Notes: generated by a model from the letters alone, not told the origin. A DNA stretch of 64,000 bases from Deltaproteobacteria bacterium (GCA_012729375.1 JAAYDE010000073.1:18763-82762); one strand, 5' to 3'. Shown: positions 4,598-49,040, counted from the stretch's first letter. Made by a program: numbers and translations.

Positions 4598-4813
4598 ATG
4601 ACGATCGAAGAACTGAGCACCCACTTTCACAAACTGTCCCATACCGAAAAATTGGTTTTTTTCAAAGCCATCATGCCGACCTTGTGCGCGCTCTTTAAAG
4701 ATGATCCCCAGCGAATGATGTCGGAAATGATGCCATTGTGCCGGGAGATGATGCAGGGTTGCTCCGGCGACATGTTCCGGATGATGCAGCAGATGATGAC
4801 AAGGCCTTCGTGA
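4598..4813 (+). CDS. Small Met/Cys-rich protein (71 aa), unknown function
   Basis: Strong RBS AGGAGG 6 nt before the ATG. 13 Met (mostly MM pairs) and 3 Cys in 71 aa. Directly follows acr3. Confidence 0.6.
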   Translation: MTIEELSTHFHKLSHTEKLVFFKAIMPTLCALFKDDPQRMMSEMMPLCREMMQGCSGDMFRMMQQMMTRPS

Positions 4814-5378: not shown

Positions 5379-6281
5379 TCAAACCAGCAGATTGAAGACA
5401 TAACCGCCGATCACCGCCGTGGCCCAAATCACCAGGACCACCGCGCCGACCAGGCGTTTTCTGAAGATGCCCGCCAGCATGGCCATCTCCGGAATCGCCA
5501 TGCCGGCGCCGCCGATGATCAGGGCGATGACCGCCCCCAGGCTCATGCCTTTTTGGGAAAGGGCCAGTCCGATGGGGATGGCCGTTTCCGCCCGGATGTA
5601 AAGCGGAATACCGACCACGGCCGCCACCGGGATGGCGAAGGGGTTGCCGGGACCGGCGATCCGGGTTACAAAATCCTGGGGGATGTAGCCGTAAATCCCC
5701 GCGCCGATGCCGACGCCGATGAGCAGGTAGATGAGCACCGCCCGGAAATCCCCCCAGGCGGAGATGAAAGACGCTCTCAGTTTGCCGGGAAAATTCCGGG
5801 GGTTGGATTTGGCCTCCGGACCTTTGCAGCAACAGCATGATTGGCCTCTTACCTTCTTTACATAGCGCGCGCCGCCCGCCTTCTCCAGAAAAACGCCGAA
5901 CAGAACCGAGCCCGCAAAGGTCACCGTGAAATAAATCAGGCAGGCCTTGACGCCCATGAGCGCCCACACCATGCTGATGATGATCGGATTCAGTAAAGGC
6001 GAGGCGATGACAAAGGACATGACCGGCCCGAAGGGCGCTCCGGCCTGGAGCATCCCCAGCGTCATCGGGATGGTGGAACAGGCACAGAAAGGAGTCAGGG
6101 AGCCGACGACAGCGCCCAGAAAATTCCCCCATATGCCGCGCCGGGAAAGCCACTGGCGAAGTTTTTCCCGCGGCACATACAGCAAAAGCAGGGAGACAAC
6201 CGTGCTGATGCCCAGAAACAGCACCGTCAACTCGGCGGTGATCACGAAAAAGTAAAGCAGCGTATCCATCAGGGTATTCAT
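5379..6281 (-). CDS. Permease, PF03773/ArsP-like (putative organoarsenical or metalloid efflux)
   Basis: 300 aa polytopic protein. TPFCACSTIP matches the ArsP vicinal-Cys motif (TPFCSCS type). A central loop carries SCCCCK. Confidence 0.7.
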   Translation of the reverse strand: MNTLMDTLLYFFVITAELTVLFLGISTVVSLLLLYVPREKLRQWLSRRGIWGNFLGAVVGSLTPFCACSTIPMTLGMLQAGAPFGPVMSFVIASPLLNPIIISMVWALMGVKACLIYFTVTFAGSVLFGVFLEKAGGARYVKKVRGQSCCCCKGPEAKSNPRNFPGKLRASFISAWGDFRAVLIYLLIGVGIGAGIYGYIPQDFVTRIAGPGNPFAIPVAAVVGIPLYIRAETAIPIGLALSQKGMSLGAVIALIIGGAGMAIPEMAMLAGIFRKRLVGAVVLVIWATAVIGGYVFNLLV

Positions 6282-6298
6282 TTGACGGTCCCTCGCAA

Positions 6299-6319
6299 AG
6301 TTGACGATATCAACTAAAT
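6299..6319. promoter_or_regulatory. Palindromic operator candidate AGTTGA-N5-TCAACT(AAAT), copy 1
   Basis: 18 nt upstream of the ArsP-like ATG (6281) and 14 nt after the marR stop. Near-identical copy at 6851..6871. Confidence 0.5.
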
Positions 6320-6332
6320 GATCAAAAAATTT

Positions 6333-6779
6333 TTATCTCTTCAGGGATCCGGCCATGACGGTGACGGCCTTCATCACCTCGGGAACCGTTTCGGGCGGCA
6401 CCTTCGCCAGGAGTTCCTTGAATTTCTTCATATAGCGGGAGTTGGCCGAGCGGAGAATCCGTTCTCCTTTTTCCGTAATGACGACACAGCAGATTCTGGC
6501 ATCCTGCGGGGATTTCACCTTGTCGATGAGCCCCTTCCTGGCCAGGCGGTTGACGATCCGGGTGGCTCCGCTTTTGGTGAACCCCAGGGGATGGCCCACC
6601 ACCTGAACCGGGCAATCCGGGGTCACCGAAACCTTTTCCAGGGCGATAAATTCCGGCATGGTGAGATCGTCGCAGCATTCGCCCCGCAAACCCTTGGGCC
6701 CGAAATGCCAGGCGATCTCTATCAGGGATCGGCTCAGTTCTGAAACAATGGCTTCGGTCAATTTTCTTTCCTCCGACAT
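6333..6779 (-). CDS. MarR family transcriptional regulator
   Basis: 148 aa with LGFTKSGATRIVNRLARKGLIDK, a winged HTH. Two CC pairs (GECCDD, ARICCVV). Confidence 0.8.
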   Translation of the reverse strand: MSEERKLTEAIVSELSRSLIEIAWHFGPKGLRGECCDDLTMPEFIALEKVSVTPDCPVQVVGHPLGFTKSGATRIVNRLARKGLIDKVKSPQDARICCVVITEKGERILRSANSRYMKKFKELLAKVPPETVPEVMKAVTVMAGSLKR

Positions 6780-6871: not shown

Positions 6872-7000
6872 GGGCCTGAGAATTTTGTTTCCCCGGAAAA
6901 AGGCCACTTTTTCACGGAAAAAAGATTTTTCTCTAAAAAGATTTGCATTGTTCTTGGCTTTTTGGCTATATTGCCAAATAGGGGACGAAAGGAGATTGCC

Positions 7001-7333
7001 ATGTATCAGACCCAAAAGGCTCATCTGGCGGCCCGCGCCCGGATCATCAAGGCCATGGGGCACCCCAGCCGCCTCTTCATCATCGAGGAGCTGGGGCGGG
7101 GGGAGCGCTGTGTCTTTGATCTGACAGCGATGATCGGCGCCGACGTCTCCACCGTCTCCAAACATCTGACGGTGCTCAAGCAGGCCGGTATCGTTCTCGA
7201 CGACAAGCGCGGCAATCAGGTTTTCTACCGTCTCCGCGTGCCCTGCATTCTCAATTTCTTCGGCTGCGTGGAGTCGGTGATGGAAGCGCAGCGGAAAGAG
7301 CATCTGGCGCTGGCGGAGCGGGTCGCCCGCTGA
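7001..7333 (+). CDS. ArsR/SmtB family transcriptional regulator (second copy)
   Basis: RIIKAMGHPSRLFIIEELGRGERCVFDL...VSKHLTVLKQAGIV HTH, with a C-terminal Cys pair VPCILNFFGC. AAAGGAGA RBS before ATG 7001. Confidence 0.8.
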   Translation: MYQTQKAHLAARARIIKAMGHPSRLFIIEELGRGERCVFDLTAMIGADVSTVSKHLTVLKQAGIVLDDKRGNQVFYRLRVPCILNFFGCVESVMEAQRKEHLALAERVAR

Positions 7334-7397: not shown

Positions 7398-8720
7398 ATG
7401 GACTGGAAAAAGGAATGGAAACCGCTGGCCTTGATTTTGGCGGTCTTCGCCGCCTGTTACTACTTGCCGGTGGAGTGGTTGCAGGCCACCCGGCGCATCG
7501 AGAACGCCCTGTGGGAATCGCTTTATCTGGTCAAATGGTACGCCCGCGAACACGTGCTCCTCTGCCTGGTGCCGGCTTTTTTCATCGCCGGCGCCGTCGG
7601 GGTCTTCGTCAGTCAGGCGGCGGTCATGAAGTATCTCGGCCCCCGCGCCAACAAGGTGCTGGCCTACGGAGTCGCTTCCGTTTCCGGCACCGTGCTGGCG
7701 GTCTGTTCCTGCACCATTCTGCCGCTGTTTGCCGGCATCTACCGGATGGGGGCGGGGCTGGGACCGGCCAGCGCCTTTCTCTACTCGGGGCCGGCCATCA
7801 ACATCCTCGCCATCGTGCTGACGGCCTCCGTCCTCGGTCCCGAAATGGGCATCGCCCGGGCCGTCGGCGCCGTGGTTTTCGCCGTGGTCATCGGTTTGTG
7901 CATGCATTTCATCTTCCGCAAGGAGGAAGAGGCCAAATTCGAGGCGGCGGCCGGTTTTCCCGAACCGGAAGTTCAGCGCCCTCTGTGGCAGACAGCCCTC
8001 TATTTCGCTGCCATGGTCGGCATCCTGGTTTTCGCCAACTGGGGGCGCCCGGAGGAAACCAGCGGTTTGTGGCACCTCATCTACTCCTCGAAATGGTGGA
8101 TTTCTTCCCTGTTCGCCCTGGCTTTGGCCGTTATTCTGGTCCTCTGGTTCAAGGTCGGCAGGGGTCCGATGCTGCTGGCGGCTTTGCCGGTCATGGTCCT
8201 GGCCCTGGTTTTTCCTCAATATCCGGCGCTGGCCTTTGTCGCCGGGAGCATCGGCCTGTCGGTGCTGACCGCCACCGGCGGGGGTAAAAAGGATGGCGAA
8301 CTTCAGGAATGGTTTGACGTCTCCTGGGATTTCGCCAAAAAGATCATGCCGCTGCTGTTCTGGGGTGTGCTGATCTCCGGCGCTTTGCTGGGCCGGCCCG
8401 AGAACGAGGGTCTGATCCCTTCCCAGTGGATTTCGGGTCTGGTGGGAGGCAACTCGTTGGGGGCCAATCTCTTTGCGTCGGTGGTGGGGGCCTTCATGTA
8501 TTTCGCCACCCTCACCGAGGTGCCGATTCTGCAGGGGCTGCTCGGCGCCGGCATGGGCAAGGGTCCGGCTTTGGCCCTGCTTTTGGCCGGTCCGGCCCTG
8601 TCGCTGCCCAACATGCTGGTCATCCGCAGTGTCATGGGGACCAAGAAAACAATCGTCTTTGTCGCCCTGGTCATTGTCATGGCGACCCTGAGCGGCCTGA
8701 TATTCGGCGCTTTTTACTGA
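7398..8720 (+). CDS. Permease, PF03773/ArsP-like, long form (440 aa)
   Basis: Polytopic protein. VLAVCSCTILPLFAGIYRMGAGLGPASAFLYSGPAINILAI is the conserved CxC-containing core of this family. Confidence 0.75.
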   Translation: MDWKKEWKPLALILAVFAACYYLPVEWLQATRRIENALWESLYLVKWYAREHVLLCLVPAFFIAGAVGVFVSQAAVMKYLGPRANKVLAYGVASVSGTVLAVCSCTILPLFAGIYRMGAGLGPASAFLYSGPAINILAIVLTASVLGPEMGIARAVGAVVFAVVIGLCMHFIFRKEEEAKFEAAAGFPEPEVQRPLWQTALYFAAMVGILVFANWGRPEETSGLWHLIYSSKWWISSLFALALAVILVLWFKVGRGPMLLAALPVMVLALVFPQYPALAFVAGSIGLSVLTATGGGKKDGELQEWFDVSWDFAKKIMPLLFWGVLISGALLGRPENEGLIPSQWISGLVGGNSLGANLFASVVGAFMYFATLTEVPILQGLLGAGMGKGPALALLLAGPALSLPNMLVIRSVMGTKKTIVFVALVIVMATLSGLIFGAFY

Positions 8721-9421
8721 CCTTGACTTTTCAGGAGACGGAACCAGCGTCGCGAAAATGTTAACAAAGCAGCTGAACATGCCGAAGCCTCGATTGACCG
8801 GGATTAAGGGGATGAAAGGGGTTCATGCCACAATCAAACAAAAGCTTTTACCGACGCAAAGAACGCGAAGAAAGACCAACAAAAAACGCCTTGAGGCTAA
8901 AAACACGGGCGCCTGTATGGATTGTGAATATATCCGTATCGAAAAACAAGGATTAAGCCGCTTCAATAAAAAACACTTTGCCGGCGAACGGCCCGCGCCT
9001 TGACCATTCCCCGGGAACCTTCTCGGCGCCAGCAAAGACACCGTTTTTGAGCAGCCGGCCAAAGAACACCGATTGGCCGCGGTCGGGCGGCGCCCGTTTT
9101 TCTCTTTTCCCGTTTCCCCCTCCGTGCCGTCCCGGCCTCGGCAACCGGTGACTTCCCCACCCTTTTTTAATCTTTTTTCCAGAGCAGACTTTCCTTTTCC
9201 GTCTCATCTCTATTCCCCGAAAATCATTTATTTCTCGAAAGTCCCACAGGCCAAACCAAAAAGATTTGATATGAAAAAGACTGCCTTCGAAAGAAATTAT
9301 ACCAATTTTGTCCTAAATTTATAAATATATAAACTTATTGAGTTAAATTTATTTTTTAAATTTTTTTCCAAAGCTTCCGAGAATATTTTTATCCCCCTTT
9401 GCACGGATCGCTTTTTTTCTG

Positions 9422-9450
9422 TTGACAGGCCATGCCAATGGAGTTATATG
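9422..9450 (+). promoter_or_regulatory. Possible sigma70-type promoter for the ATP-grasp/KamA operon
   Basis: TTGACA (9422..9427), 17 nt spacer, TATATG (weak -10). Preceded by a very AT-rich tract (9240..9420). Leaves a roughly 160-nt leader. Confidence 0.3.
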
Positions 9451-9615
9451 CGAGATAACAAGCCTTTGTTCAGGCCCGGATGCTCACGACTCAAGTGCAT
9501 AAAAGCAACCCCTTTTAATGCTATAGCCCAAAGCATCCAGGGCCCCAGGAGCAAGGTTTCCTCTCCCTTGGGAGAGTATCGCAAGTCGTTTTTCAGGCTC
9601 TAAAAGGGGTTCGTT

Positions 9616-10650
9616 ATGCACGTCGCACTCGCCTTCAACCTGCGGGAATCCGCAGGCGCGGCTTGCGTTCACGCGCAATCCGCCATCGACGACCGTTTCG
9701 CCGAATGGGATGACATTCACACCATCCAGGCGGTGCAGACGGCCCTCTCCAAGCGTTATCAGGTCACTCCCGTAAATGCCGATCTGGATGCTTTCCATTC
9801 CTTCCGCGAACTGAGGCCGGACCTTGTTTTCAACATGGCCGAGGGTTTTCACGGCGCCAGCCGCGAAGCCCAAATCCCGGCCATGCTCGATATGCTCGGC
9901 ATTCCCTACACCGGCAGCGATCCGGTCACCCTCGGTATCTGCCTGGACAAGCGCCGTACCAAAGAGATCCTGGCCTACCACCGCATCCCCACGGCCCGTT
10001 TCGTCACCGTCTCCTGTCTGCAGGAACTGCCGGAACATTTCCGCTATCCGCTGATCGTCAAGCCGATTCTGGAAGGCTCCAGCAAGGGAGTGACCGACCG
10101 CGCCCTGGTTCGCAACCGCACCGAGCTCAAAGATCAGGTTTCCTGGGCCCTTGACGCCTACCGTCAACCGATACTGGTCGAGGAATACCTGGCCGGGCGG
10201 GAATTCACCGCGGCGCTGCTCGGCAACGGCGCCGACCTGCGGGTTCTGCCCATCGTGGAGATCGATTTCGCCTCCCTTCCCCAAGGCGCCAATCCGATCT
10301 ATTCCTATGAAGCCAAGTGGATCTGGGATACCGAGGAGGCGCCCCTGCCGATCTTCGTCTGTCCGGCCCAGGTGGAAGCAGACCTCGCCCGCAACATCGA
10401 GGAGGTCTGCCGCAGGGCCTTCACCGTCCTCGGCTGCCGCGACTGGTGTCGCATCGACGTGCGCCTCGATGGTGAAGGCACCCCCAACGTCATCGAACTG
10501 AACCCGCTCCCCGGCATTCTTCCGCGCCCGGAGCAAAACAGCTGTTTCCCCAAGGCGGCCCGCGCCGCGGGCCTCACTTACGACGACCTGGTCCTGACGG
10601 TGGCCGATGTCGCCTGCCGGCGCCTGGGACTTGAGAACAGGGGGCGCTGA
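9616..10650 (+). CDS. ATP-grasp ligase, D-alanine--D-alanine ligase-like (copy 1)
   Basis: 344 aa with PLIVKPILEGSSKGV, VEEYLAGREFT and VIELNPLPG, the ATP-grasp motifs. Confidence 0.8.
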   Translation: MHVALAFNLRESAGAACVHAQSAIDDRFAEWDDIHTIQAVQTALSKRYQVTPVNADLDAFHSFRELRPDLVFNMAEGFHGASREAQIPAMLDMLGIPYTGSDPVTLGICLDKRRTKEILAYHRIPTARFVTVSCLQELPEHFRYPLIVKPILEGSSKGVTDRALVRNRTELKDQVSWALDAYRQPILVEEYLAGREFTAALLGNGADLRVLPIVEIDFASLPQGANPIYSYEAKWIWDTEEAPLPIFVCPAQVEADLARNIEEVCRRAFTVLGCRDWCRIDVRLDGEGTPNVIELNPLPGILPRPEQNSCFPKAARAAGLTYDDLVLTVADVACRRLGLENRGR

Positions 10651-11663
10651 TGAACATCGCTGTCTGCTATAATCGCGTCCCTCCCAAACTGATCCGGGGA
10701 GAGGCCACCGACCGCATTTCCGAGGAAGGAGCGGAGGCTCAGGCCCAGGCCGTCGGCACCGCTCTCGAAAAACTGGGGCACCGGGTGTGCTTGGTGCCGC
10801 TGGGGGCCTCTCTTGCCGCCTTTGTCAACGATCTTCAGGAAGCCGCGGTTGATCTGGTCTTCAACCTGTGTGAGGGTTTCTGGGGAGAAAGCCGCATGGA
10901 AATGAATGTGGCCGCCCTTCTGGAGATGCTGGGCACACCCTGCACCGGATCCTCGCCCCTGTGCCTCGGTGTCACCCAGAACAAAACCCTGACCAAAGCG
11001 TTGCTGATCCAACATGGGCTGCCCACTCCGAAATCGATTACGGTGCGCGGCGAACACCTTTTCGCCCGCGCCAAAAACCTCTCCTGGCCGCTGATCGTCA
11101 AACCGGCCACGGAGGACGCCAGCCTCGGCATCGGCCCGGAAAGCGTGGTGACGGATGAAAAATCCCTGCACGAGCGGGTCCGCCATATCCACAACCGCTA
11201 CCAGCAGGCGGTACTGGTGGAGGAGTACATCGACGGCCGGGAGTTCAACGTCTCCCTGCTGGGAGGCGAGAAGCCGCGGGTCCTCCCCCTGGCGGAGATC
11301 CGTTTCGACTCCTCCCTCCCCTGGAAACTGGTCACCTATGCCGGCAAATGGCAGGAGGATTCCCCCGACTACACCGGAACCCAGGTGGCCTGCCCGGCTC
11401 AGGTTTCCGTCCGTGAGGATTTCCTGGTGCGGGACGTGGCCCTGCGCGCCTATAAGCTGCTCGGCTGCCGGGATTACGCCAGGGTCGATATCCGTCTGCG
11501 GGACGGCGTCCCTTACATTCTGGAAGTCAACGCCAACCCCGATATTTCACCCGATGCCGGACTGGCCCGGAGCGCCCGGGCCGGCGGCCTCGACTATCCG
11601 CAACTGATCGAACGCATCATTCGTATGGCCCTTAAACGCAAGGAGAATTGCCATGCTGCGTAA
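10650..11663 (+). CDS. ATP-grasp ligase, D-alanine--D-alanine ligase-like (copy 2)
   Basis: 337 aa paralog with PLIVKPATEDASLGI, VEEYIDGREFNV and ILEVNANPD. Its start overlaps the previous stop (TGATG). Confidence 0.8.
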   Translation: MNIAVCYNRVPPKLIRGEATDRISEEGAEAQAQAVGTALEKLGHRVCLVPLGASLAAFVNDLQEAAVDLVFNLCEGFWGESRMEMNVAALLEMLGTPCTGSSPLCLGVTQNKTLTKALLIQHGLPTPKSITVRGEHLFARAKNLSWPLIVKPATEDASLGIGPESVVTDEKSLHERVRHIHNRYQQAVLVEEYIDGREFNVSLLGGEKPRVLPLAEIRFDSSLPWKLVTYAGKWQEDSPDYTGTQVACPAQVSVREDFLVRDVALRAYKLLGCRDYARVDIRLRDGVPYILEVNANPDISPDAGLARSARAGGLDYPQLIERIIRMALKRKENCHAA

Positions 11664-12135
11664 CCTGGAACCGCAAGACTTCGACCCTCTCTCGTCCATC
11701 CTCCGGCGCACGGGAGCTTTTACCGAGCCAGAGGTGGAATGTGCGCTGGAGCTTCTCGATACCGTACTCAACCGGCCCGAGCAACGGGACTATCTGGTGA
11801 CCGTTGCCGTGGAGGACAATCGAGTGGCCGGTTACATCCTGTACGGACCCATCCCCCTGACCGAATTCAGTTATGACATCTACTGGATCGCCATCGACCC
11901 CGATCTGCAGGGCCGCCATATCGGCCGCCGGCTGCTGCGTCATTCGGAGCAGGACATACTGGCCCGCGGCGGCAAGCTGATCTGCATCGAAACCAGCTCC
12001 CAGTCGGGGTACACCGGAACCCGTCAGTTCTATCTCCACAACGGTTACGAGGAAGAAAGCCGGATCCGCGATTTCTACCGTTCGGGCGATGACCGCATCA
12101 CCTACGTCAAGCGGCTTTCGGCGGAAGGGAGGTAG
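11653..12135 (+). CDS. GNAT family N-acetyltransferase
   Basis: 160 aa with IAIDPDLQGRHIGRRLL, the acetyl-CoA binding Q/RxxGxG/A motif. Overlaps the upstream gene by 11 nt. Confidence 0.8.
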   Translation: MLRNLEPQDFDPLSSILRRTGAFTEPEVECALELLDTVLNRPEQRDYLVTVAVEDNRVAGYILYGPIPLTEFSYDIYWIAIDPDLQGRHIGRRLLRHSEQDILARGGKLICIETSSQSGYTGTRQFYLHNGYEEESRIRDFYRSGDDRITYVKRLSAEGR

Positions 12136-12139
12136 GGTG

Positions 12140-13231
12140 ATGAATTCCTGGAAACAGATGCTGAAGGAAAGTATGGTCCGGCCGGCGGACCTGGTGAAAC
12201 GTTTCGGCGTCGACCCCCGTCCCCTGGAAAAGGTCGTGGCCCGCTACCCGATGCGCGTCACCCCCTACTACCTGGGTCTGATCCAGTCGGTGGACGATCC
12301 CATCTGGCGCCAGGCGGTACCCTCGGAAGAGGAATTGCAGGCCGGCGCCTGCGTGGCCGATCCGCTGGACGAGGAAAACCAGAGCCCGGTCCCCAACCTG
12401 GTGCACCGCTATCCCGACCGGGTACTCTTTCTCGTCAGCTCGGAATGCGCCATGTACTGCCGGTTCTGCACCCGCAAACGCAAGGTCGGCTGCGCGCAGA
12501 TGCGCATTACCCGCGACACATTGCGCCAGGGACTCGACTACATCCGCTGCCACCCGCAGGTGCGCGACGTCATCCTCTCCGGCGGCGACCCCCTGCTGTT
12601 GCCCGATGAAACCCTGGAATGGATCCTCAAGGAACTGCGCGCCATCCCCTCGGTGGAGATCATCCGCATCGGCAGCCGTGTGCCCGTGGTGCTTCCCCAG
12701 CGAATCACTCCCCACCTGACGCGGATGTTGAAGAAATATCATCCTCTCTACCTCAACACCCACTTCAACCATCCCCTGGAGATCACTCCTGAGGCGGCCG
12801 GCGCCTGTGGCCGCCTGGCCGATGTGGGCATCCCCCTGGGCAACCAGTCGGTGCTGCTGCGCGGGGTGAACGACGACGTGGCGACGATGAGGCGTCTGGT
12901 GCAGAAACTGCTGTCCATCCGCGTCAAGCCCTATTACCTCTACCAGGCCGACCTGGTCGAGGGAACCGACCACTTCCGCACCACGGTGGAGGAGGGGATT
13001 GCTATCATCGACGGCATCCGCGGTCATACTTCCGGCCTGGGGGTGCCCGCCTTCGTCATCGACGCCCCCGGCGGCGGCGGCAAAATCCCCTTGCTTCCCG
13101 ACTATCTCCAGCAGATGGGGGAAGAAGTGGTGCTGCGCAACTACCAGCACCGCCGCTTCAGCTACCCCAACGGCCGGTCGGCCCCCGAGGCAGAGCCCCT
13201 GGTTGGGAACATGGGTTCTTGGGCCCGCTGA
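12140..13231 (+). CDS. KamA family radical SAM aminomutase (lysine 2,3-aminomutase-like)
   Basis: SSECAMYCRFCTRKRKVG (CxxxCxxC), GGDPLLL, NQSVLLRGVNDD, PYYLYQADL and VIDAPGGGGKIP. RBS GGAAGGGAGG before the start. The track ORF start 12089 overlaps the GNAT gene and was rejected. Confidence 0.85.
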   Translation: MNSWKQMLKESMVRPADLVKRFGVDPRPLEKVVARYPMRVTPYYLGLIQSVDDPIWRQAVPSEEELQAGACVADPLDEENQSPVPNLVHRYPDRVLFLVSSECAMYCRFCTRKRKVGCAQMRITRDTLRQGLDYIRCHPQVRDVILSGGDPLLLPDETLEWILKELRAIPSVEIIRIGSRVPVVLPQRITPHLTRMLKKYHPLYLNTHFNHPLEITPEAAGACGRLADVGIPLGNQSVLLRGVNDDVATMRRLVQKLLSIRVKPYYLYQADLVEGTDHFRTTVEEGIAIIDGIRGHTSGLGVPAFVIDAPGGGGKIPLLPDYLQQMGEEVVLRNYQHRRFSYPNGRSAPEAEPLVGNMGSWAR

Positions 13232-13434: not shown

Positions 13435-13875
13435 ATGAAAAAATTTTTATTTTTGGTTTTTTTCGGTCTCTTGTTGACGCCGTTGACGGTTGTGGCGGAA
13501 GACACAATCCAGGATTATTCGATCAGGGAGGCGCTGGGTGAAGAAAAAATTAAAAATGTCCTCGGCGACGATGTGAAGTTTTATTTCGGCACTCAGCGGC
13601 ACGGCAAGGTGTTAAAAAAATTTGGCAATTTCCGAACCAGCAAAAAGGCCAACGCCTTCATGAAAAGCAAGGAATCGGCTTGCCAGTGGGCCTTTGCCTC
13701 GTCATTGAAAGCATTTAAAGACAGGGCGTTAAGGGAAGGCGGAAACGCCGTGATCAACATCCAGTCCAACTACAACAACGTGAGGACCGCCAGCTCCGAA
13801 ACCTACAAATGCGGGTCGGGGGCCGCGGTTGCCGGCGTCGCCCTGGTCGGCGATGTCGTTAGACTGGCAGAATAA
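13435..13875 (+). CDS. Secreted hypothetical protein (146 aa)
   Basis: Signal peptide MKKFLFLVFFGLLLTPLTVVA. Lower GC than its neighbours. No function assignable. Confidence 0.6.
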   Translation: MKKFLFLVFFGLLLTPLTVVAEDTIQDYSIREALGEEKIKNVLGDDVKFYFGTQRHGKVLKKFGNFRTSKKANAFMKSKESACQWAFASSLKAFKDRALREGGNAVINIQSNYNNVRTASSETYKCGSGAAVAGVALVGDVVRLAE

Positions 13876-13940: not shown

Positions 13941-13971
13941 AAGGCCTCCCCAAAACGGAGGCCTTTTGTTT
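13941..13971 (+). terminator. Rho-independent terminator
   Basis: AAGGCCTCC / GGAGGCCTT stem, 7-nt loop, then TTTTGTTT. Confidence 0.75.
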
Positions 13972-21391: not shown

Positions 21392-22126
21392 TTAGGGGTC
21401 ATGCCGATGGGGAAGGGATCCGTGGGGATGGGCGTGAAAGTGACGATGAAGGGTTATTTTCTCATCGCCGCAGATTTGTCCGTCAGTCATGGCATAGACA
21501 GCCCGCACCGATTTTTCCAGAAAATCGTACTCATGGGAAATGATGATATAGGAGATCTTCAGCCCGTTGAGAATCCGCAGAAAATTATTCCTGGTTGTTT
21601 CGTCAAGACCGTTGGTCGGTTCATCCAGCAGAAGCACTTCCGGTTCCATGGACAGCAAGGTCGCCAGCGACACCAACTTTTTTTCGCCTCCCGAAAGACG
21701 GTGGATAAGCCGCCCTTCAAAACCCGCCAGGCCCAGATCCTTCAGGGTCCGCATGGCGATTCGGCGTGCTTCGGCCGGCGTTTTACCGAGATTCAGGGGG
21801 CCGAAAGCGACATCCTCCAAAACCGTGGGGGAAAAAAGCTGGTCGTCGGCATCCTGAAAAAGCAGGCCGATGCGACGCCGGGCGACGACAAAATCCTCCT
21901 CGGTCGCAAGACGGCGGCCGAAGGCCTCGATATGCCCGCGGGATGGTTTCAGAAGCCCCACGATCAGATGGAAAAACGTCGTCTTGCCGGACCCGTTCAG
22001 CCCGGTCAGGCCCAGCCGGTCCCCTTCTCTGAGTTCGAAGTCAAGGCCCTTGAGAACCGGGACACCGCCGGGGTAGGAAAAATGGATATCGGACAGCTTT
22101 AGAAGCAAACCAGGTTCGTCAGCCAT
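21392..22126 (-). CDS. nikO: ECF transporter ATPase, NikO/CbiO
   Basis: GLNGSGKTT Walker A, LSGGEKKLVSLA signature, LLLDEPT Walker B, and a His-rich tail HRHFHAHPHGSLPHRHDP. The track ORF extends to 22690 in a frame overlapping nikQ, so the internal ATG 22126 was chosen. Confidence 0.85.
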   Translation of the reverse strand: MADEPGLLLKLSDIHFSYPGGVPVLKGLDFELREGDRLGLTGLNGSGKTTFFHLIVGLLKPSRGHIEAFGRRLATEEDFVVARRRIGLLFQDADDQLFSPTVLEDVAFGPLNLGKTPAEARRIAMRTLKDLGLAGFEGRLIHRLSGGEKKLVSLATLLSMEPEVLLLDEPTNGLDETTRNNFLRILNGLKISYIIISHEYDFLEKSVRAVYAMTDGQICGDEKITLHRHFHAHPHGSLPHRHDP

Positions 22127-22866
22127 GGCCAAGTCGACACCACCCCCGGCGGAATGAACAGAGCCACCGCCCAAAACCAATCCGCTCTGCGGAAGCGCAT
22201 CTCCTCCAGCGCCGGAAACCGTCCCCGAAACCCACGGCAAATCATGGCCCGGTGCACCTGGTCGGCCCGCAACGAGGCTCTCAGAAAGAGCATGCCAACC
22301 AGGTAGGCGTAAGTGCGGTAGGTGTGGAGGTCGGTCCGCGGTTGAAAGGAACGCAACCGGACCATCCTCTCCAGGCGGTGGTATTCCTGTTCCAGAACAA
22401 AGATGTAACGATAGCAGAAAAGGAGAATGTATACCAGTTTTTCCGGAAAATGAAAACGGTAAAGGACCTGTCCGATGACACCGATGGGAAGGGGCCCGAC
22501 AAAAACGGCAAGGACGACAAGAATGGCTGTGGCCTTGAGGGTGACCATCCCGGCAAGCTGGAAACCGGCGGCGGTGAAAGAAATCGGTCCCAGGGCGAAG
22601 AGCGGCCGGCCGGCAACGGTCAAGGGCAGGACGACCCACAGAAAAAGGATGAAAAGATATGCCGGCAGGAGCCTGCGCGCCACCTGCCAAAGGCCGGGTT
22701 TGGTGGCAGCCAGGATCATCCCGGAAAAACCGAGGCCCGCCCAGAGGGCCGGCCAGCGGGCAGACAAAGCGACGGCAAAGGAGAAAAGGACGGCAAAGAG
22801 GACTTTCAGGCGCGGATCGATCCTCTTGACAGGGCCGTCGGGAATGACAAGGGGTTCAGGGATCAC
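22099..22866 (-). CDS. nikQ: ECF transporter transmembrane (T) component, NikQ/CbiQ
   Basis: RIDPRLKVLFAVLF start and polytopic character. ...RSF...R motif region (ERMVRLRSFQPR). Confidence 0.85.
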   Translation of the reverse strand: MIPEPLVIPDGPVKRIDPRLKVLFAVLFSFAVALSARWPALWAGLGFSGMILAATKPGLWQVARRLLPAYLFILFLWVVLPLTVAGRPLFALGPISFTAAGFQLAGMVTLKATAILVVLAVFVGPLPIGVIGQVLYRFHFPEKLVYILLFCYRYIFVLEQEYHRLERMVRLRSFQPRTDLHTYRTYAYLVGMLFLRASLRADQVHRAMICRGFRGRFPALEEMRFRRADWFWAVALFIPPGVVSTWPWLTNLVCF

Positions 22867-22884
22867 GGCGGATTGCCCCGGAGA

Positions 22885-23493
22885 TCATTTCTTGCGGTAA
22901 CGGAAGTAGGCGGCGGCTCCCATCAAGCCGAGGATGTAGCCGACACCGCCGACAACATCCCGCAGGCCGGGGGCTGGGTCGCGCAGCTCCACCAGGGCGC
23001 GCTCGATGGGTTGAAGACGGCGCTCGAGCAGGGCATCGACCAGCTTTTCCAGCTCCTTGCCCGCCTCGCCGGAAAGGTTTGTCAGCGCGGCAGCATGGGC
23101 ATAGTCGTCACCCGCAGCCGCCGGCGCCTCCCGGGTCGGCTGGGCGTGGCCCAGTTCGGCGGCGGTCACCAGCCACTCGGCCCGATGGCCCATAGACGCG
23201 TCGAGAACAATCCTGAGATCCGTAACCGCCGGAACGGCAAAGGAAAAGAGCCCGCCGTCGTCGGTTTTCCCGGTCACCAATGGGTTCCCCTCCCCGGCGT
23301 AAACGGCCACCGCCCCCCCCTTGACGGGTTTGTTGTTGGAAAACTTGCTTGCGGTGTGAATGCTCTCTGCCTCCACCCAGGCAAAGATGGTCACCCGGTG
23401 GGCCGCAACCGGGGACGAAAAAAAGAGGAAAGCGAGGAACAGAACTCCGCCCATCCGGAATTTTGAGCCGATGGAGAACCGTGCCAACTTCAT
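22885..23493 (-). CDS. NikL-like accessory membrane protein (signal/TM, beta-rich periplasmic domain, C-terminal TM)
   Basis: The ATG overlaps the nikM stop (ATGA). The predicted mature N-terminus is HRVTIFAWVE. The C-terminal anchor is VVGGVGYILGLMGAAAYFRYRKK. The NikL assignment rests on position in a Nik(K)MLQO-type operon. Confidence 0.55.
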   Translation of the reverse strand: MKLARFSIGSKFRMGGVLFLAFLFFSSPVAAHRVTIFAWVEAESIHTASKFSNNKPVKGGAVAVYAGEGNPLVTGKTDDGGLFSFAVPAVTDLRIVLDASMGHRAEWLVTAAELGHAQPTREAPAAAGDDYAHAAALTNLSGEAGKELEKLVDALLERRLQPIERALVELRDPAPGLRDVVGGVGYILGLMGAAAYFRYRKK

Positions 23494-24104
23494 GTGGGTC
23501 GACCTTTTCGAAAGAAAGGAAGCAAAGAAGGTTGGACCCTGTTCAGAAAGGAGACGCAGAAAGCGGTGATGATGCCTTCGATGATCATGACCGGAAAGTG
23601 GGCCGCAACCAACAGTGAAGCCGCTTTCAGAAAATGTCCGTTGCTCAGGACCAGGGCCAGGGCGGCCAGGAGGGCGGCGAAAAGAACAGACAACGCACCG
23701 CCGGCAAAAGCCGCGCCCCAGAGTGGCATGCGCAGATTCAGGGCCCCACGCACCAAATAGTAACAGATCACGGCGGGCAGAGCCATGATGAGGGTGTTGA
23801 CCCCGAGCACGGCAAGGCCGCCGAATTGAAACAGCACCGCTTGCAAAGTCAAGGCCGTCAAAATAGCCGGAAAAGCGCCCCATCCCAGGAGCAGGCCGAC
23901 CATTCCATTGAGAATCAGATGCACGTTGCCGGGGCCTAAAGGAACATGAATCAGGGACGCGACGAAAAAAGAAGCGGCGAGGATTCCCGCCCGGCCGGTT
24001 TCTTCCAGGGAAAGCCTTTTCAGTCCCAGCGCCGTGGCGGCCACGGTCAAAGCCAGGCCGGAAACAAGAACAGGAGCGCTGAGAACGCCTTCCGAAATAT
24101 GCAT
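23490..24104 (-). CDS. nikM: ECF substrate-capture component NikM/CbiM
   Basis: The N-terminus MHISEGVL carries the Met-His metal-binding N-terminus characteristic of CbiM/NikM. 204 aa polytopic protein. Confidence 0.88.
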   Translation of the reverse strand: MHISEGVLSAPVLVSGLALTVAATALGLKRLSLEETGRAGILAASFFVASLIHVPLGPGNVHLILNGMVGLLLGWGAFPAILTALTLQAVLFQFGGLAVLGVNTLIMALPAVICYYLVRGALNLRMPLWGAAFAGGALSVLFAALLAALALVLSNGHFLKAASLLVAAHFPVMIIEGIITAFCVSFLNRVQPSLLPFFRKGRPT

Positions 24105-24187
24105 CTTGGCTGCTTCCAGTTGGTAAAAAACACCGCCCCGGCACCGGGGCGGCGCCGCGGTTTGGCGCTATCGTGGGCTCAGAGCGG

Positions 24188-24970
24188 CTACTTTTTGGTT
24201 TGCCAATCGACAAACTCCACCCACAGCACGGCGCCCAGCTCGACATCCTTCGCCTCATCCCCACGCTTCAGCTTTTCCGGCGCCGTATGCAGGGCGGCAA
24301 AACCCCACCAGCCGGCTTGCGGAGCCGCGTAGGTAAAAACGCCGTTGGCGTCGGCTTTGACCGACTGGGTGATCATGTATTCCGTCGGCGCTACGGCTTT
24401 GCCGTCGCGGTTGTAGTACTCCACCTCCACTAGGGCGTTGGGAACGGCTTTGCCCTCCAGTTTGACAACCCCCTGGAAGACATTGCCGACGTAGAGCCCG
24501 AAGGGTCTGGAGAGAGGCACGATCTCGGTTCTCAGGCCGATTTCGCCGGCCCAGCCCTCGTCGTCGCCGAAGGCGGCGACCAGGGTTTTGGTGTAATGGA
24601 TGATGAAGCAATCTTCCGCGGGCTCCCAATAGGGCTGGGGCTCCATGTAGAACTGATAGACACCAGGACGGCTCAGGGGATAATCGATCTGCCAGCCGCC
24701 CTGACCGAGGATGGCGGCCTTCTTCAGCCCGGCAAGGAGGTCGGTTTTGGCGCCCTGGGCCATGACTCCGAAAACCCTGGGTTTTTGCAGATCCATACCG
24801 GCCCTCTCGAAGGGATGGGAAAAAGAGATCTGCAGATTCAGGGTGCGGGAATCGTCCGCCATGACCATGGAATCAGACGGGATGATCATCCCGAAATGGG
24901 CCCAGGCGGGAAGGCAGAAAAGAATCGACAAAGAAACAAAAAACGACACATGACCGAGTTTTCTTTTCAT
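24188..24970 (-). CDS. Periplasmic DUF4198 protein, NikK-like nickel-binding component
   Basis: Signal peptide ending LPAWA, then a mature HFGMIIPS. Beta-rich. GGAGG RBS before ATG 24970. Confidence 0.7.
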
Positions 24971-25152
24971 CGCCACACCTCCGGATCTTCACAGATTCAT
25001 GGAAAAGATTTAACGTATAACAAAAATAATTTTTACAGGACTTAACCGAATAAATTTTTAAAAAAAGTAGCACGATAGGGTCATAAAATCCAGCGGAAAA
25101 ATGAATTGTCAAGATGATTGGGAAAACGGGCCGGGAAACCGTGGATGTGCTT

Positions 25153-25569
25153 TCAGATGTTTTTGCCGGTAGTGGTCATCACCAGTTTGCCGTGCTTGAC
25201 GCCGCGGGCACCGATCATCTCGTCGGCCAGTTTTTTGACATCTCCCGCTTTGCCCTTGACCACTATCACCTCCAGGCAGTTGTGTTCGTCAAGGTGAACG
25301 TGGAGGGCGGAAATGACCGACCCGTGACTGGCGTGTTGGCGGTCGTTAAGTTGCCGGGCAAGTTCTCTGGTGTGGTGATCGTAGACGAGGGTGACGGTAC
25401 CGACGATTTCTTCTTCGGCGCTGGCGGAGGCCTCGGTGACCAGAGTGTCGCGGATCAGATCCCGTATCGCCTCGGAGCGGTTCACATAACCCTTTTCGGC
25501 GATGAGATCGTCAAACTGTTTGAGAAGACGGCTGTCGATGGATATCCCGAAACGAAGCAAGTGAGACAT
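25153..25569 (-). CDS. nikR: Nickel-responsive regulator NikR
   Basis: [18 protein letters not shown] ribbon-helix-helix N-terminus. The C-terminal domain carries HHTRE...[10 protein letters not shown], the Ni-binding His/Cys set. Confidence 0.88.
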
Positions 25570-25689
25570 GGCCCTCCCCTTGACAAAACCGGTTATTTTT
25601 TCCTTTAACACAGAGCCGTTTACAAATCAAGAAGCGATCCCCGGGACTTATTCTCCGACAGGCGATCCACAGACTTGCCAACAGATTGC

Positions 25690-25705
25690 AAACAATATGT
25701 TGTGG
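25690..25705. promoter_or_regulatory. NrdR box 1
   Basis: AAACAATATGTTGTGG matches the NrdR-box palindrome type acaCwAtATaTwGtgt. Confidence 0.65.
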
Positions 25706-25721
25706 GGCAACGTAAAACAAA

Positions 25722-25737
25722 AAACAACATATTGTGT
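25722..25737. promoter_or_regulatory. NrdR box 2
   Basis: AAACAACATATTGTGT. Its core is the reverse complement of the box 1 core. Centre-to-centre spacing is 32 bp (about 3 helical turns), and it lies 72 nt upstream of the nrdD ATG. Confidence 0.65.
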
Positions 25738-25808
25738 TTTTCCGCCTTGACTCTGTGCTTGACTCTGGTAAATTGAGAGGCGGTTTATCATCCTTGAATG
25801 GAGGAAAG

Positions 25809-33077: not shown

Positions 33078-33107
33078 TTGACAACCGGTTGTCCGGGATT
33101 GTATATT
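33078..33107 (+). promoter_or_regulatory. Sigma70-type promoter of the cbi operon
   Basis: TTGACA (33078..33083), 18 nt spacer, TATATT (33102..33107). Confidence 0.6.
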
Positions 33108-33111
33108 TCCT

Positions 33112-33320
33112 CCGTACGAGTTCCCGTTTTCGGGATTGATAGGGAAGACGGTGAGAATCCGTCGCGGACCCGCCGCCGTAACCGGAGACGAACCCCGCAA
33201 CAGCCACTGTCCCTTGCCGGGTGCAGGAAAAAGATCTTTTCCGCAGCCCTTTGGGGATGGGAAGGCGCGGCCAGTAGGATGACCCGGAAGCCGGAAGACC
33301 TGCTCGGATTGATGACATTG
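33112..33320 (+). promoter_or_regulatory. Cobalamin riboswitch (aptamer) no. 1
   Basis: Conserved elements TAGGGAAGACGGTGAGAATCCGTC, B12 box AGCCACTGTCCC, GGGAAGGCG and CCGGAAGACCTGC. Confidence 0.88.
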
Positions 33321-33366
33321 GCATTCTCCCCGGGTTTCGGGAGGATCTGTCATGGGACGAAAATCG

Positions 33367-48755: not shown

Positions 48756-48784
48756 TTGACAACCCCCCTGTCATCCTCTTAAAT
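48756..48784 (+). promoter_or_regulatory. Sigma70-type promoter of the second riboswitch-controlled operon
   Basis: TTGACA (48756..48761), 17 nt spacer, TTAAAT (48779..48784). Confidence 0.55.
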
Positions 48785-48789
48785 GGCTG

Positions 48790-48985
48790 GGTCAACGGTG
48801 CTTGCAAAGCTCAATAGGGAATCCCGTGGAAATCGGGAGCGGTCCCGCCGCTGTGAGCCCCCCCTTGGAGGAAAACGCAAGGGAGCATGGTGCCGGCCAA
48901 GTACGCCACTGAAGAGACTTCAGCCTCTTCGGGAAGGTTGCCGGCAGCAGGGGCAAGCCAGAAGACCTGCCTTGACGATAGCCGT
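48790..48985 (+). promoter_or_regulatory. Cobalamin riboswitch (aptamer) no. 2
   Basis: AATAGGGAATCCCGTGGAAATCGGGAGCGGTCCCGCC, B12 box CGCCACTG, GGGAAGGT and AGCCAGAAGACCTGCC. Confidence 0.88.
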
Positions 48986-49040
48986 CCTTCTGCGGGAAAC
49001 AGCAAGGGGCAAAACAGCGAGGGCCAAGAAAACTGGGTGC

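Follow-up and report, generated by a model that had tools for sequence, protein, structure and literature searches.

What would be made by an operon that joins two D-Ala-D-Ala-ligase (Ddl)-like ATP-grasp enzymes to a small acetyltransferase and a lysine aminomutase? Such a locus lies in a 64,000-nt stretch of DNA from a Deltaproteobacteria bacterium (GCA_012729375.1 JAAYDE010000073.1:18763-82762; hereafter the window), and its four genes are as follows.

AG1, 9616-10650, + strand: 344 aa, Ddl-fold ATP-grasp carboxylate-amine ligase (Pfam PF07478, E 2e-36)
AG2, 10650-11663, + strand: 337 aa, paralogous Ddl-like ATP-grasp ligase (Pfam PF07478, E 2e-33)
GNAT, 11653-12135, + strand: 160 aa, small GNAT N-acetyltransferase (Pfam Acetyltransf_7 and Acetyltransf_1)
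KamA, 12140-13231, + strand: 363 aa, short-form radical-SAM/PLP lysine 2,3-aminomutase (Pfam Radical_SAM and LAM_C)

The four-gene operon and its enzymes

A sequence-only reading of this DNA had described a tightly coupled operon, and its overlaps and 4-nt gap between 9616 and 13231 on the + strand were all verified in the sequence. AG1 and AG2 share 1 nt within TGATG at 10648-10652, AG2 and GNAT overlap by 11 nt (11653-11663), and GNAT and KamA are separated by 4 nt (12136-12139), with Shine-Dalgarno (SD)-like sequences 5' of the start codons of GNAT and KamA. KamA could also begin at an in-frame ATG at 12089, but 12140 was adopted because it fits both the homologues, which have 361-363 aa, and the database protein P0001, which is identical. 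Inspection of the gene junctions found no small ORFs between the cassette genes, and the PADLOC defence-system models returned only a 17.6-bit match of generic radical-SAM character to pVip. The four genes are best explained as a single operon encoding a small-molecule pathway. Our literature search found no paper on the AG1-AG2-GNAT-KamA cassette, an uncharacterised operon.

Every motif cited in the sequence-only reading is present in the proteins. In KamA, these are CAMYCRFC (CxxxCxxC) at residues 103-110, YQADL at 268 and IDAPGGGGK at 307. HMMER alignment to the clostridial lysine 2,3-aminomutase (PDB 2A5H), with which KamA shares 185 of 310 aligned residues (60%), places the last two motifs on D293, D330 and K337. 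KamA keeps the equivalents of the PLP lysine K337, the ε-amino-binding D293 and D330 and the carboxylate-binding R134; the Asp pair that the sequence-only reading took to bind the lysine ε-amino group is therefore correct. In glutamate 2,3-aminomutase, Lys/Asn stand in place of D293/D330. KamA scored 473.9 bits against the AblA/KamA model TIGR03820, its highest score (model positions 38-358 of 417) yet below the equivalog cut-off of 525.4, and it passes the KamA family model TIGR00238 (314.2 bits, cut-off 199.2). It is a short form that lacks the C-terminal ~55 residues, with neither the C-terminal multimerisation domain nor the Zn site (C268, C375, C377, C380); C268 aligns to an Asp. An assignment to EpmB was rejected (TIGR03821, 260.9 bits, cut-off 369.3; no efp/epmA linkage), and so was one to the glutamate or arginine 2,3-aminomutases (423 and 363 bits, cut-offs 650 and 600; both Asp kept). 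The scores and the lysine-binding residues agree with the earlier claim of an aminomutase for a basic substrate.

AG1 and AG2 are paralogues (39% identical), and Dala_Dala_lig_C is the Pfam domain found in both. Neither was accepted as a genuine Ddl: both fall below every Ddl cut-off (NF002378, the best Ddl model, cut-off 243 bits: AG1 187.2, AG2 168.5; TIGR01205, cut-off 245.65 bits: AG1 149.2, AG2 142.9), though the Ddl fold and catalytic residues are intact. The AF2 model of AG1 (pLDDT 93.4) has the complete three-domain Ddl fold, and each of its 50 best PDB matches is a Ddl or Van ligase; TM to DdlB was 0.75-0.86 in the best matches (lower further down the list) at 27-28% identity. By HMMER alignment to DdlB (2DLN/1IOV), K112, K149, E189, E196 and K234 of AG1 correspond to K97, K144, E180, E187 and K215, and R279, D281, E294 and N296 to R255, D257, E270 and N272; these ATP/Mg2+ and catalytic residues are invariant in the family. 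In contrast, the Ddl substrate triad E15-S150-Y216 with L282 is not conserved as a set. Y216 is replaced by W235 and L282 by C310, S150 and S281 are kept, and E30 may be the equivalent of E15, judged only by its position before helix 1. In AG2, Tyr216 is also Trp according to the paralogue alignment and the list of conserved positions, from which the ATP-grasp core residues were likewise read by eye as kept; Ala157 occupies the place read by eye as equivalent to S150. Of the cassette proteins AG1 is the best conserved, with 115 positions at least 90% conserved across phyla. The RimK Pfam model matched AG2 marginally (22.2 bits, cut-off 21, no domain stretch passing) and AG1 not at all. The closed, two-substrate Ddl type of these enzymes argues for small substrates.

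GNAT gave no match to AblB (TIGR03827) even at E ≤ 10, in a library assumed to include that model. RimI was rejected (TIGR01575, 48.3 bits, cut-off 86.4), although it was nonetheless the best family match. Over residues 3-152, GNAT is homologous to an uncharacterised protein from structural genomics (PDB 2R7H, E 9e-31). The substrate of GNAT could be unrelated to the ligase products.

Conservation, polyamine genes and a shared leader RNA

The order AG1-AG2-GNAT-KamA was found in 66 of the 80 related genome loci, which represent five or more phyla, and since it recurs in so many independent loci, the arrangement is not due to chance. Carriers belong to Desulfuromonadales, Ignavibacteriota, Kryptonia, Acidobacteriota and Planctomycetota and include groundwater, freshwater and hot-spring lineages; Desulfovibrio and Woeseia have the cassette genes in another order. 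The flanking genes are lineage-specific and differ between loci. Fusion proteins of the types AG-AG, AG-GNAT and KamA-AG are known, the last being metagenomic singletons that may be frameshift artefacts. The gene-neighbourhood check thus bears out conservation as a unit, reinforced by the fusions. With an aminomutase outside the EpmB clade, ligases below the Ddl cut-offs and a unit conserved across phyla, neither of the grounds that the sequence-only reading had named against itself applies. Its candidate, a co-translated operon for β-amino-acid ligation and acetylation apart from AblA/AblB and EpmA/EpmB, is supported in its core, given a KamA nearest to AblA/KamA, no AblB match and ligases below the Ddl cut-offs.

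In six loci, translationally coupled SpeY, SpeB and PvlArgDC genes, which make up the homospermidine pathway (PMC13625781), lie upstream of AG1-AG2 in the stead of KamA. In these loci AG1 keeps 113 of its 115 conserved positions, and AG2 keeps 64 of 66. In addition, at least 15 loci have a GNAT-HDAC gene next to the operon, and the PDB entries that match it best are without exception acetylpolyamine amidohydrolases (APAH-like). The 64,000-nt window itself contains neither homospermidine nor APAH-like genes.

Upstream of AG1, the following elements were found.

Promoter, 9422-9450, + strand: σ70-like, -35 TTGACA (9422-9427), 17-nt spacer, -10 TATATG (9445-9450), read from sequence
Leader, 9457-9615, + strand: structured, riboswitch-like 5' leader RNA of ~160 nt
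SD region, 9602-9611, + strand: AAAAGGGGTT, complementary to the anti-SD AACCCCTTTT at 9507-9516, read from sequence

Twelve Desulfuromonadales loci have conserved -35 and -10 elements at this same position; a consensus promoter scanner missed this promoter because its -10 ends in G. The leader consists of a long closing helix (P1/P2), a small GCC/GGC hairpin, a AUAAAAAG/CUUUUUAU hairpin and then a variable hairpin, and its invariant anti-SD segment (9501-9518) allows an alternative pairing with the SD, the SD/anti-SD columns being paired in 12 of 12 sequences by RNAalifold. The fold of the leader in the window sequesters the SD and AUG (dG -52.7 kcal/mol, z -2.39). The leader has covariation support. 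Across 43 copies aligned by MAFFT and left unfitted, paired cells made up 78.6%, compared to at most 53.8% when the partners were slid, and none of 500 shuffles reached any of the five measures. No Rfam model among 4227 matched at its gathering score, the best sub-threshold matches (E 1.9 and 7) being unrelated sRNAs. A covariance model (R1) found 58 copies, which, among the loci examined, occur only in Desulfuromonadales-type loci. Furthermore, the leader precedes MgtC-family genes as well, in six metagenome loci, and in one locus (L014) an MgtC gene directly follows KamA. This structured leader RNA, upstream of both the cassette and mgtC-type genes, is previously undescribed. MgtC is linked to Mg2+ in other bacteria, and the common leader suggests that the cassette and the mgtC-family genes share a cation (Mg2+/polycation) homeostasis regulon. 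The predicted on/off logic of the leader has no obvious fit to induction at low Mg2+. Taken together, the homospermidine genes, the APAH-like deacetylase and the leader shared with mgtC point to a polyamine-like product and to cation homeostasis.

A proposed pathway and its alternatives

We consider it somewhat probable that the operon encodes an ATP-dependent pathway to an N-acetylated, β-lysine-containing, polyamine-like small molecule, possibly linked to Mg2+/cation homeostasis. We infer in what order the steps occur, which substrates the ligases use, what is made and what role it has in physiology. KamA, as we propose from its sequence, would convert L-lysine to β-lysine (3,6-diaminohexanoate). 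AG1 and AG2, probably acting as a pair, would each turn a carboxylate into an acyl phosphate at the expense of ATP and couple it to an amine, and GNAT would acetylate a free amine with acetyl-CoA. As the sequence-only reading had put forward, β-lysine may be ligated twice. The product would most likely be an N-acetylated β-lysine amide or pseudopeptide of polyamine character, such as a β-lysyl-polyamine or a short β-lysine conjugate, and could be de-acetylated by the APAH-like deacetylase that many genomes encode beside the operon. In Desulfuromonadales, the leader may control translation by alternately exposing and sequestering the SD and start codon.

The operon might instead serve the known N-ε-acetyl-β-lysine osmolyte route (AblA with an acetyltransferase like AblB), the ligases being accessory or further derivatising its product. 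The top score of KamA with the AblA model, the GNAT gene directly adjoining it and the marine or haloalkaliphilic habit of some carriers, e.g. Geoalkalibacter halelectricus, would all fit, and in Pelobacter carbinolicus, of the same order, the ablA/ablB pair Pcar_1401/1402 is annotated as a salt-tolerance route (PMC3543383). However, we regard this reading as unlikely: the 160-aa GNAT does not match AblB, the ligases are translationally coupled, colinear in those 66 of 80 loci and at times fused to GNAT or KamA, and the earlier idea of an osmolyte found no specific support among groundwater, freshwater and hot-spring carriers whose gene context is polyamines and mgtC (cations) instead of salt.

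Modification of a peptide or protein, either as a graspetide-type RiPP or as EF-P-like β-lysylation by ATP-grasp enzymes, is a second alternative. Microviridin clusters likewise contain two ATP-grasp ligases and a GNAT (mdnB/mdnC/mdnD), the alternative partners KamA and the deoxyhypusine-synthase homologue belong to EF-P/eIF5A-modification families, and RimI, the best family match of GNAT, is a protein N-acetyltransferase. We nevertheless hold it to be quite unlikely, as no ORF for a precursor or carrier was found within the genes or between them, the fold of the ligases is the closed Ddl type (RimK marginal in AG2, none in AG1) and KamA keeps its residues for binding free lysine. Moreover, the product of SpeY homologues is a free polyamine (PMC13625781), and a separate yjeK-efp pair is already present in Desulfuromonas (PMC2821294). 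No EF-P gene lies within the 64,000-nt window, and none was present among the called neighbours.

It is also rather improbable that the ligases polymerise β-lysine, by itself or together with another residue, to give an oligomeric or polymeric polycation like cyanophycin or poly-lysine that GNAT caps or detoxifies. Two ligase activities beside one monomer-supplying enzyme would suit such a role, as would the association of polycation (polyamine) genes and a deacetylase with the cassette, and streptothricins provide a precedent in their oligo-β-lysine chains, which are inactivated by GNAT acetylation. Ddl-type enzymes are, however, dipeptide ligases with an enclosed site, the Pfam scan gave no primer-binding or extra domains, and export genes are not conserved among the recurrent neighbours. 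That AG1 and AG2 are ordinary cell-wall D-Ala-D-Ala ligases merely adjoining an aminomutase is extremely improbable: Pfam/NCBIfam names are Ddl-like and public annotations read D-alanine--D-alanine ligase, but the scores (187 and 168.5 bits) stay below 243, Tyr216 is Trp in both, they are found paired as paralogues or fused, and their synteny is with KamA and GNAT (66/80 loci), not mur/fts.

Comparison with known systems

Several known systems come close to the cassette. In AblA/AblB of methanogens and green sulfur bacteria, an AblA/KamA-clade aminomutase also stands beside an acetyl-CoA-dependent acetyltransferase, with β-lysine as the committed intermediate. In contrast, the cassette has a smaller GNAT of another family with no AblB match, a KamA without the C-terminal domain and two integral Ddl-like ligases, and no link to salt was found. 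EpmA/EpmB resembles it in a truncated KamA-family aminomutase that provides β-lysine for amide linkage; here, KamA lies outside the EpmB clade (261 bits vs 369), no EpmA/efp is nearby, and the ligases are ATP-grasp enzymes rather than aaRS paralogues.

The cassette ligase shares with the Ddl/VanA family the three-domain fold and the ATP/Mg2+ and acyl-phosphate catalytic residues, but its N-terminal substrate loop reads AEWD..T where Ddl has GGxSxE, Y216 is Trp, and the ligases are paired paralogues below the family cut-offs, outside a cell-wall (mur/fts) context. Microviridin (graspetide) clusters share the set of two ATP-grasp ligases and a GNAT, whereas the cassette has no precursor peptide or transporter, its ligases are of the Ddl fold and not the RimK/graspetide type, and it includes an aminomutase for a free amino acid. 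Membership of the graspetide/microviridin class was rejected, there being no candidate small ORF and only a marginal RimK match.

Synthesis of NAGGN, by the bifunctional GNAT/ATP-grasp enzyme Ngg and AsnO, yields an N-acetylated dipeptide-type solute without ribosome or NRPS. It resembles the cassette in its logic of ATP-grasp plus GNAT, with GNAT/ATP-grasp fusions in both, but it is built from glutamine, whereas the cassette would use β-lysine, no amidotransferase and two Ddl-type ligases. Glutathionylspermidine synthetase, SpeG and acetylpolyamine amidohydrolase similarly combine ATP-grasp amide formation on a polycationic amine with a pair of acetylation and deacetylation steps, and in other genomes the cassette is physically linked to APAH-like and to homospermidine genes. 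The likeness of its ligases and GNAT to this polyamine amide metabolism is one of logic and context, and the use of β-lysine in such metabolism would be new.

Layout and enzymes of the cassette

Two Ddl-like ATP-grasp ligases (AG1 and AG2), a GNAT acetyltransferase and a lysine 2,3-aminomutase (KamA) follow one another behind a promoter and leader:

9422-9615, plus strand: promoter and 5′ leader (leader 9457-9615), conserved in the alignment of upstream regions
9616-10650, plus strand: AG1, 344 aa, Pfam Dala_Dala_lig_C
10650-11663, plus strand: AG2, 337 aa, Pfam Dala_Dala_lig_C
11653-12135, plus strand: GNAT, 160 aa, Pfam GNAT
12140-13231, plus strand: KamA, 363 aa, Pfam Radical_SAM and LAM_C

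Inspection of the sequence showed that AG1 and AG2 overlap by 1 nt (TGATG) and AG2 and GNAT by 11 nt, that GNAT and KamA are separated by a 4-nt gap, and that Shine-Dalgarno (SD)-like sequences lie 5′ of the GNAT and KamA starts. The coupled four-gene operon described in the sequence-only reading was borne out in every detail of ORFs, junctions and Pfam domains. An alternative in-frame ATG is found at 12089, upstream of KamA; we placed the start at 12140, since the homologues are 361-363 aa long and a database protein (P0001) is identical to KamA.

KamA aligned with the Clostridium subterminale lysine 2,3-aminomutase 2A5H, its sole solved relative, with 185 identities in 310 aligned residues (60%, E = 1e-121). 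The CxxxCxxC motif and the Asp residues of YQADL and IDAPGGGGK that the earlier reading had picked out are all present, the motif as CAMYCRFC and the two Asp at positions D293 and D330 of 2A5H. In addition, the Lys following the second Asp aligned with the PLP lysine K337, and the Arg of CTRKR with R134. In lysine 2,3-aminomutase, D293, D330, K337 and R134 are substrate and cofactor binding residues. The Zn-site residue C268 is replaced by Asp in KamA. AblA ranked top among the NCBIfam models (474 bits, cut-off 525), followed by glutamate 2,3-aminomutase (423, cut-off 650), arginine 2,3-aminomutase (363, cut-off 600) and EpmB (261, cut-off 369), and only the cut-off of the general KamA-family model was passed. 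The score under the AblA cut-off is explained by a missing C-terminal segment, as model positions 38-358 of 417 were matched. No EF-P gene was found within the window. With 261 bits against a cut-off of 369, KamA does not fall in the EpmB clade, a placement that the sequence-only reading had named, jointly with ligases that match cell-wall Ddl, as counting against its own proposal; from its sequence we regard KamA as a true lysine 2,3-aminomutase of short form.

AG1 and AG2 are paralogues (39% identity, E = 3e-63) that are closer to each other than either is to any Ddl. The AlphaFold model of AG1 (pLDDT 93.4, pTM 0.91) superposed over its full length on DdlB (TM 0.75-0.86, 27-28% identity), and its top 50 PDB matches were all Ddl or Van ligases. 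In an HMMER alignment with E. coli DdlB, the ATP/Mg2+ and acyl-phosphate residues of AG1 were present, Y216 was replaced by Trp and L282 by Cys. Yet in profile searches both proteins scored far under every Ddl, Van and RimK cut-off, and the family carries motifs of its own (AE(W/F)D..T, FN.AEG..G..RE, YSYEAKW.WD, CRD..RID.RLD and E.NPLPG). Fold and kept catalytic residues, set beside the low scores, the substitutions and these motifs, indicate that AG1 and AG2 are not Ddl themselves but would perform Ddl-like chemistry, the ATP-dependent ligation of two small substrates. That the ligases are ordinary cell-wall Ddl, the other half of that joint condition, is effectively excluded. Cluster look-ups returned as curated names only ‘hypothetical protein’ or ‘D-alanine-D-alanine ligase’.

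GNAT reached 48 bits with the RimI model (cut-off 86), matched AAC(6′) enzymes weakly and gave no match to AblB in a profile search even at E ≤ 10. Residues 3-152 are homologous to PDB 2R7H (E = 9e-31), a solved structural-genomics entry titled ‘putative D-alanine N-acetyltransferase’; the closest relatives in a search seeded with the 2R7H sequence were Desulfovibrio-group proteins.

The genes directly upstream, for a regulator of the ArsR family (6962-7333) and a permease of ArsP type (7398-8720), seem unrelated to the cassette. The ~700 nt 5′ of the promoter (8720-9420) hold no convincing ORF; a terminator-like hairpin (9076-9099) and a very AT-rich tract (~9290-9400) are both located upstream of the promoter. 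The gene 3′ of KamA (13435-13875) encodes a 146-aa protein whose N-terminus is hydrophobic and resembles a signal peptide, with a weak, sub-threshold YbjQ-like match, and ends at a strong terminator (13941-13965); it is probably outside the cassette, because it recurs only in two near-identical contigs (L004 and L005). Elsewhere in the window (21392-27797), translations read as a CbiMNQO-type cobalt/nickel ECF transporter with a NikR-like regulator (25153-25611, minus strand), next to which lies an anaerobic ribonucleotide reductase gene (25734-27797); AT skew is unusually high (0.30) in the 22-24 kb bin. Cobalamin riboswitches at 33101-33321 and 48779-48988 (115 and 86 bits) enclose a block of raised G+C content at ~34-48 kb (65-68%, compared to 55-62% elsewhere in the window).

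Conservation, fusions and polyamine-linked variants

Desulfuromonadales are rich in close homologues of KamA and AG1, and the four genes lie colinear between unrelated flanks in Desulfuromonas versatilis and Geoalkalibacter halelectricus. When one genome per GTDB species was scanned with a query alignment of 7 sequences, more than 592 related stretches were returned. Among the best 80 loci, 66 carried AG1-AG2-GNAT-KamA in the same order and 3 further loci were cut by contig ends; gene-neighbourhood conservation, which the sequence-only reading had proposed to check, was therefore found, and it extends across several phyla. The carriers in the locus set belong to Desulfuromonadales, Ignavibacteriota (MAGs labelled Ignavibacterium album and Melioribacter roseus, and the isolate Rosettibacter primus), Kryptonia, Acidobacteriota, Planctomycetota, Bacteroidota-labelled MAGs and one Bacillota MAG. 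In our reading of the sequences, the neighbours in Ignavibacteria are housekeeping genes such as recG, gpsA, plsY and dnaG, an arrangement unlike that of a mobile island for secondary metabolites.

Gene order varies elsewhere. Woeseia has KamA, AG, an HDAC-type gene and GNAT, and Desulfovibrio mangrovi and a close relative of the 2R7H source have a sigma-54 activator followed by KamA, AG, AG and GNAT. The activator gene lies directly 5′ of KamA in the Desulfovibrio loci L086 (3857-5293) and L087 (3874-5310), so regulation there would be protein-based rather than through a leader RNA. Tractable, cultured carriers include Desulfuromonas versatilis, Geoalkalibacter halelectricus and Desulfovibrio mangrovi. 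In its distribution the cassette resembles core genome, and it is common among anaerobes and further environmental bacteria (Desulfuromonadales, Desulfovibrio, Ignavibacteriota, Kryptonia, Acidobacteriota and Planctomycetota).

A search of 1.84 billion representative proteins (E ≤ 1e-30) matched 1339 clusters, many of ~650-790 aa and aligned in two stretches. Pfam confirmed AG-AG, AG-GNAT, KamA-AG and AG-KamA fusions in single polypeptides; AG-AG and AG-GNAT came from several independent sources, and the KamA fusions, as singletons or doubletons, could be artefacts.

Six loci that lack KamA (L016, L022, L038, L066, L067 and L082) carry polyamine-pathway genes with overlapping stop and start codons directly 5′ of AG1-AG2: a deoxyhypusine-synthase homologue (SpeY) in 5 of 6, an arginase-family protein in 4 of 6 and a pyruvoyl arginine decarboxylase in 5 of 6. 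SpeY, a ureohydrolase and arginine decarboxylase produce homospermidine via bis(guanidino)homospermidine (2026 JBC paper, PMC13625781). The arginase-family gene gives way to one for a 312-aa protein with a faint ATP-grasp match in L038 and L066. In most KamA-less loci, AG1-AG2 is followed by GNAT, then a SAM methyltransferase and sometimes a second GNAT. Of the positions conserved to at least 90% in KamA-linked clusters, the ligases of these loci keep 113 of 115 in AG1 and 64 of 66 in AG2, which argues that they are the same enzymes and not re-specified. Alternative supply of amines to re-specified ligases, by KamA or by homospermidine genes, is thus disfavoured, and beta-lysine and homospermidine more probably feed together into a single pathway or regulon. 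Furthermore, a GNAT-HDAC fusion gene adjoins the operon in at least 15 loci of Desulfuromonadales, Desulfovibrio and Woeseia, and the best PDB matches of its product are all acetylpolyamine amidohydrolases (APAH; 6PHR, E = 3.5e-78, 9GKZ, 3MEN and 3Q9B). Both the homospermidine genes and the APAH-like gene are absent from the window.

A leader RNA common to AG1 and mgtC

When the sequences 5′ of AG1 were aligned, 12 of 13 Desulfuromonadales loci shared a conserved promoter (TTGACA, 17 nt, TATAyG) and a conserved ~160-nt 5′ UTR. A sigma-54 promoter like that in Desulfovibrio was also considered; no above-chance site was found 5′ of AG1. The leader matched no Rfam family. Two pairings are open to its invariant segment AAAAGCAACCCCTTTTTA, either with the SD AAAAGGGGTT or locally, as the hairpin AUAAAAAG/CUUUUUAU, and the minimum-energy folds of individual copies adopt one or the other; in the window copy, the predicted fold sequesters the SD and AUG (dG -52.7 kcal/mol, z -2.39). 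We evaluated covariation with a five-helix model on an unfitted MAFFT alignment of 43 leader copies. In this alignment 78.6% of cells were paired, compared to at most 53.8% with slid partners, 26 pairs showed double changes, and 0 of 500 shuffles reached any of five measures. In the model-fitted alignment of 51 distinct copies, 85% were paired and every base pair within P1, P2 and P5 covaried. These values support a real leader structure, although they are not probabilities, since a single member supplied the structure and the copies are related to one another. Among the loci collected, the covariance model of the leader (R1) matched only Desulfuromonadales-type ones, and none in other phyla.

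An exact-pattern scan of metagenomes gave 47 leader loci, 35 of them directly 5′ of AG1. In six (L094, L107, L110, L114, L119 and L122), leader and promoter precede a gene for an MgtC-family membrane protein (PF02308, E = 3e-29). In L094 (motif 4671-4693, minus strand), L107, L110 and L122, the leader SD-ATG opens a short ORF in a frame different from that of mgtC, which starts ~110 nt beyond the leader ATG; this ORF may encode a leader peptide. Locus L014 has the order APAH-like gene, leader, AG1, AG2, GNAT, KamA and MgtC, with the MgtC-family gene (5958-6485) directly 3′ of KamA on the same strand. MgtC proteins are part of low-Mg2+ responses in Salmonella and other bacteria. A leader common to AG1 and mgtC suggests a shared cation-related signal, and the leader is a candidate for a new riboswitch or leader class.

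Proposed pathway and comparison with known systems

The sequence analysis established how the operon is built, to which families the enzymes belong and which catalytic and substrate residues they keep, together with synteny, fusions and the RNA structure. Beyond this, we infer that KamA would make beta-lysine, that AG1, as the most conserved partner and the one fused to KamA, would probably use it directly, and that AG2 would carry out a second ligation. GNAT would then acetylate a remaining amine, and the APAH-like enzyme could reverse this step. Most plausibly, the product is a small acetylated beta-lysine conjugate with polyamine character. We favour a small-molecule beta-lysine ligation pathway with some confidence, and hold its refinement towards polyamine or cation homeostasis only tentatively. 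More speculative, and rather unlikely as a whole, is a new metabolite class in which a heteromeric Ddl-like pair joins beta-lysine to a polyamine (for example homospermidine) with reversible N-acetylation, giving an organic polycation in Mg2+/cation homeostasis, the Desulfuromonadales cassette and mgtC being controlled by a new riboswitch class that senses Mg2+, polyamine or the product.

One rival is the plain acetyl-beta-lysine osmolyte route, for which an ablA/ablB pair is annotated in Pelobacter carbinolicus (PMC3543383); however, it leaves the obligatory ligases and the non-AblB GNAT unexplained. The ligases could conceivably produce a polymer. Modification of a peptide or protein lacks a substrate gene and fits the closed Ddl fold poorly. 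No small ORF for a RiPP or carrier-protein system was found upstream of or between the cassette genes, the AG1-AG2 gaps of Ignavibacteria are N-terminal insertions of AG2, and a defence system was rejected as PADLOC gave no match.

If a beta-lysine ligation pathway is correct, the database labels (D-Ala-D-Ala ligase and lysine 2,3-aminomutase) conceal an unknown metabolite, and informative names for the cassette proteins were not found in public databases. Identification of the product would extend beta-lysine and polyamine chemistry by a new branch and correct annotations in many genomes, given more than 592 related stretches from the genome scan alone; the view that, in this bacterial order, a KamA/GNAT pair denotes the acetyl-beta-lysine osmolyte may need revision. 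The leader RNA is a concrete riboswitch candidate with two informative gene associations. The full-text literature searched, which did not include the Iyer/Aravind 2009 amidoligase survey where a mention is possible, contained no description of the cassette. All of its enzyme families are already known, and NAGGN is a precedent for an ATP-grasp ligase and a GNAT making a solute; the gene combination, its wide distribution, the context of polyamine genes and mgtC, and the leader RNA seem not to have been described before in the literature open to search.
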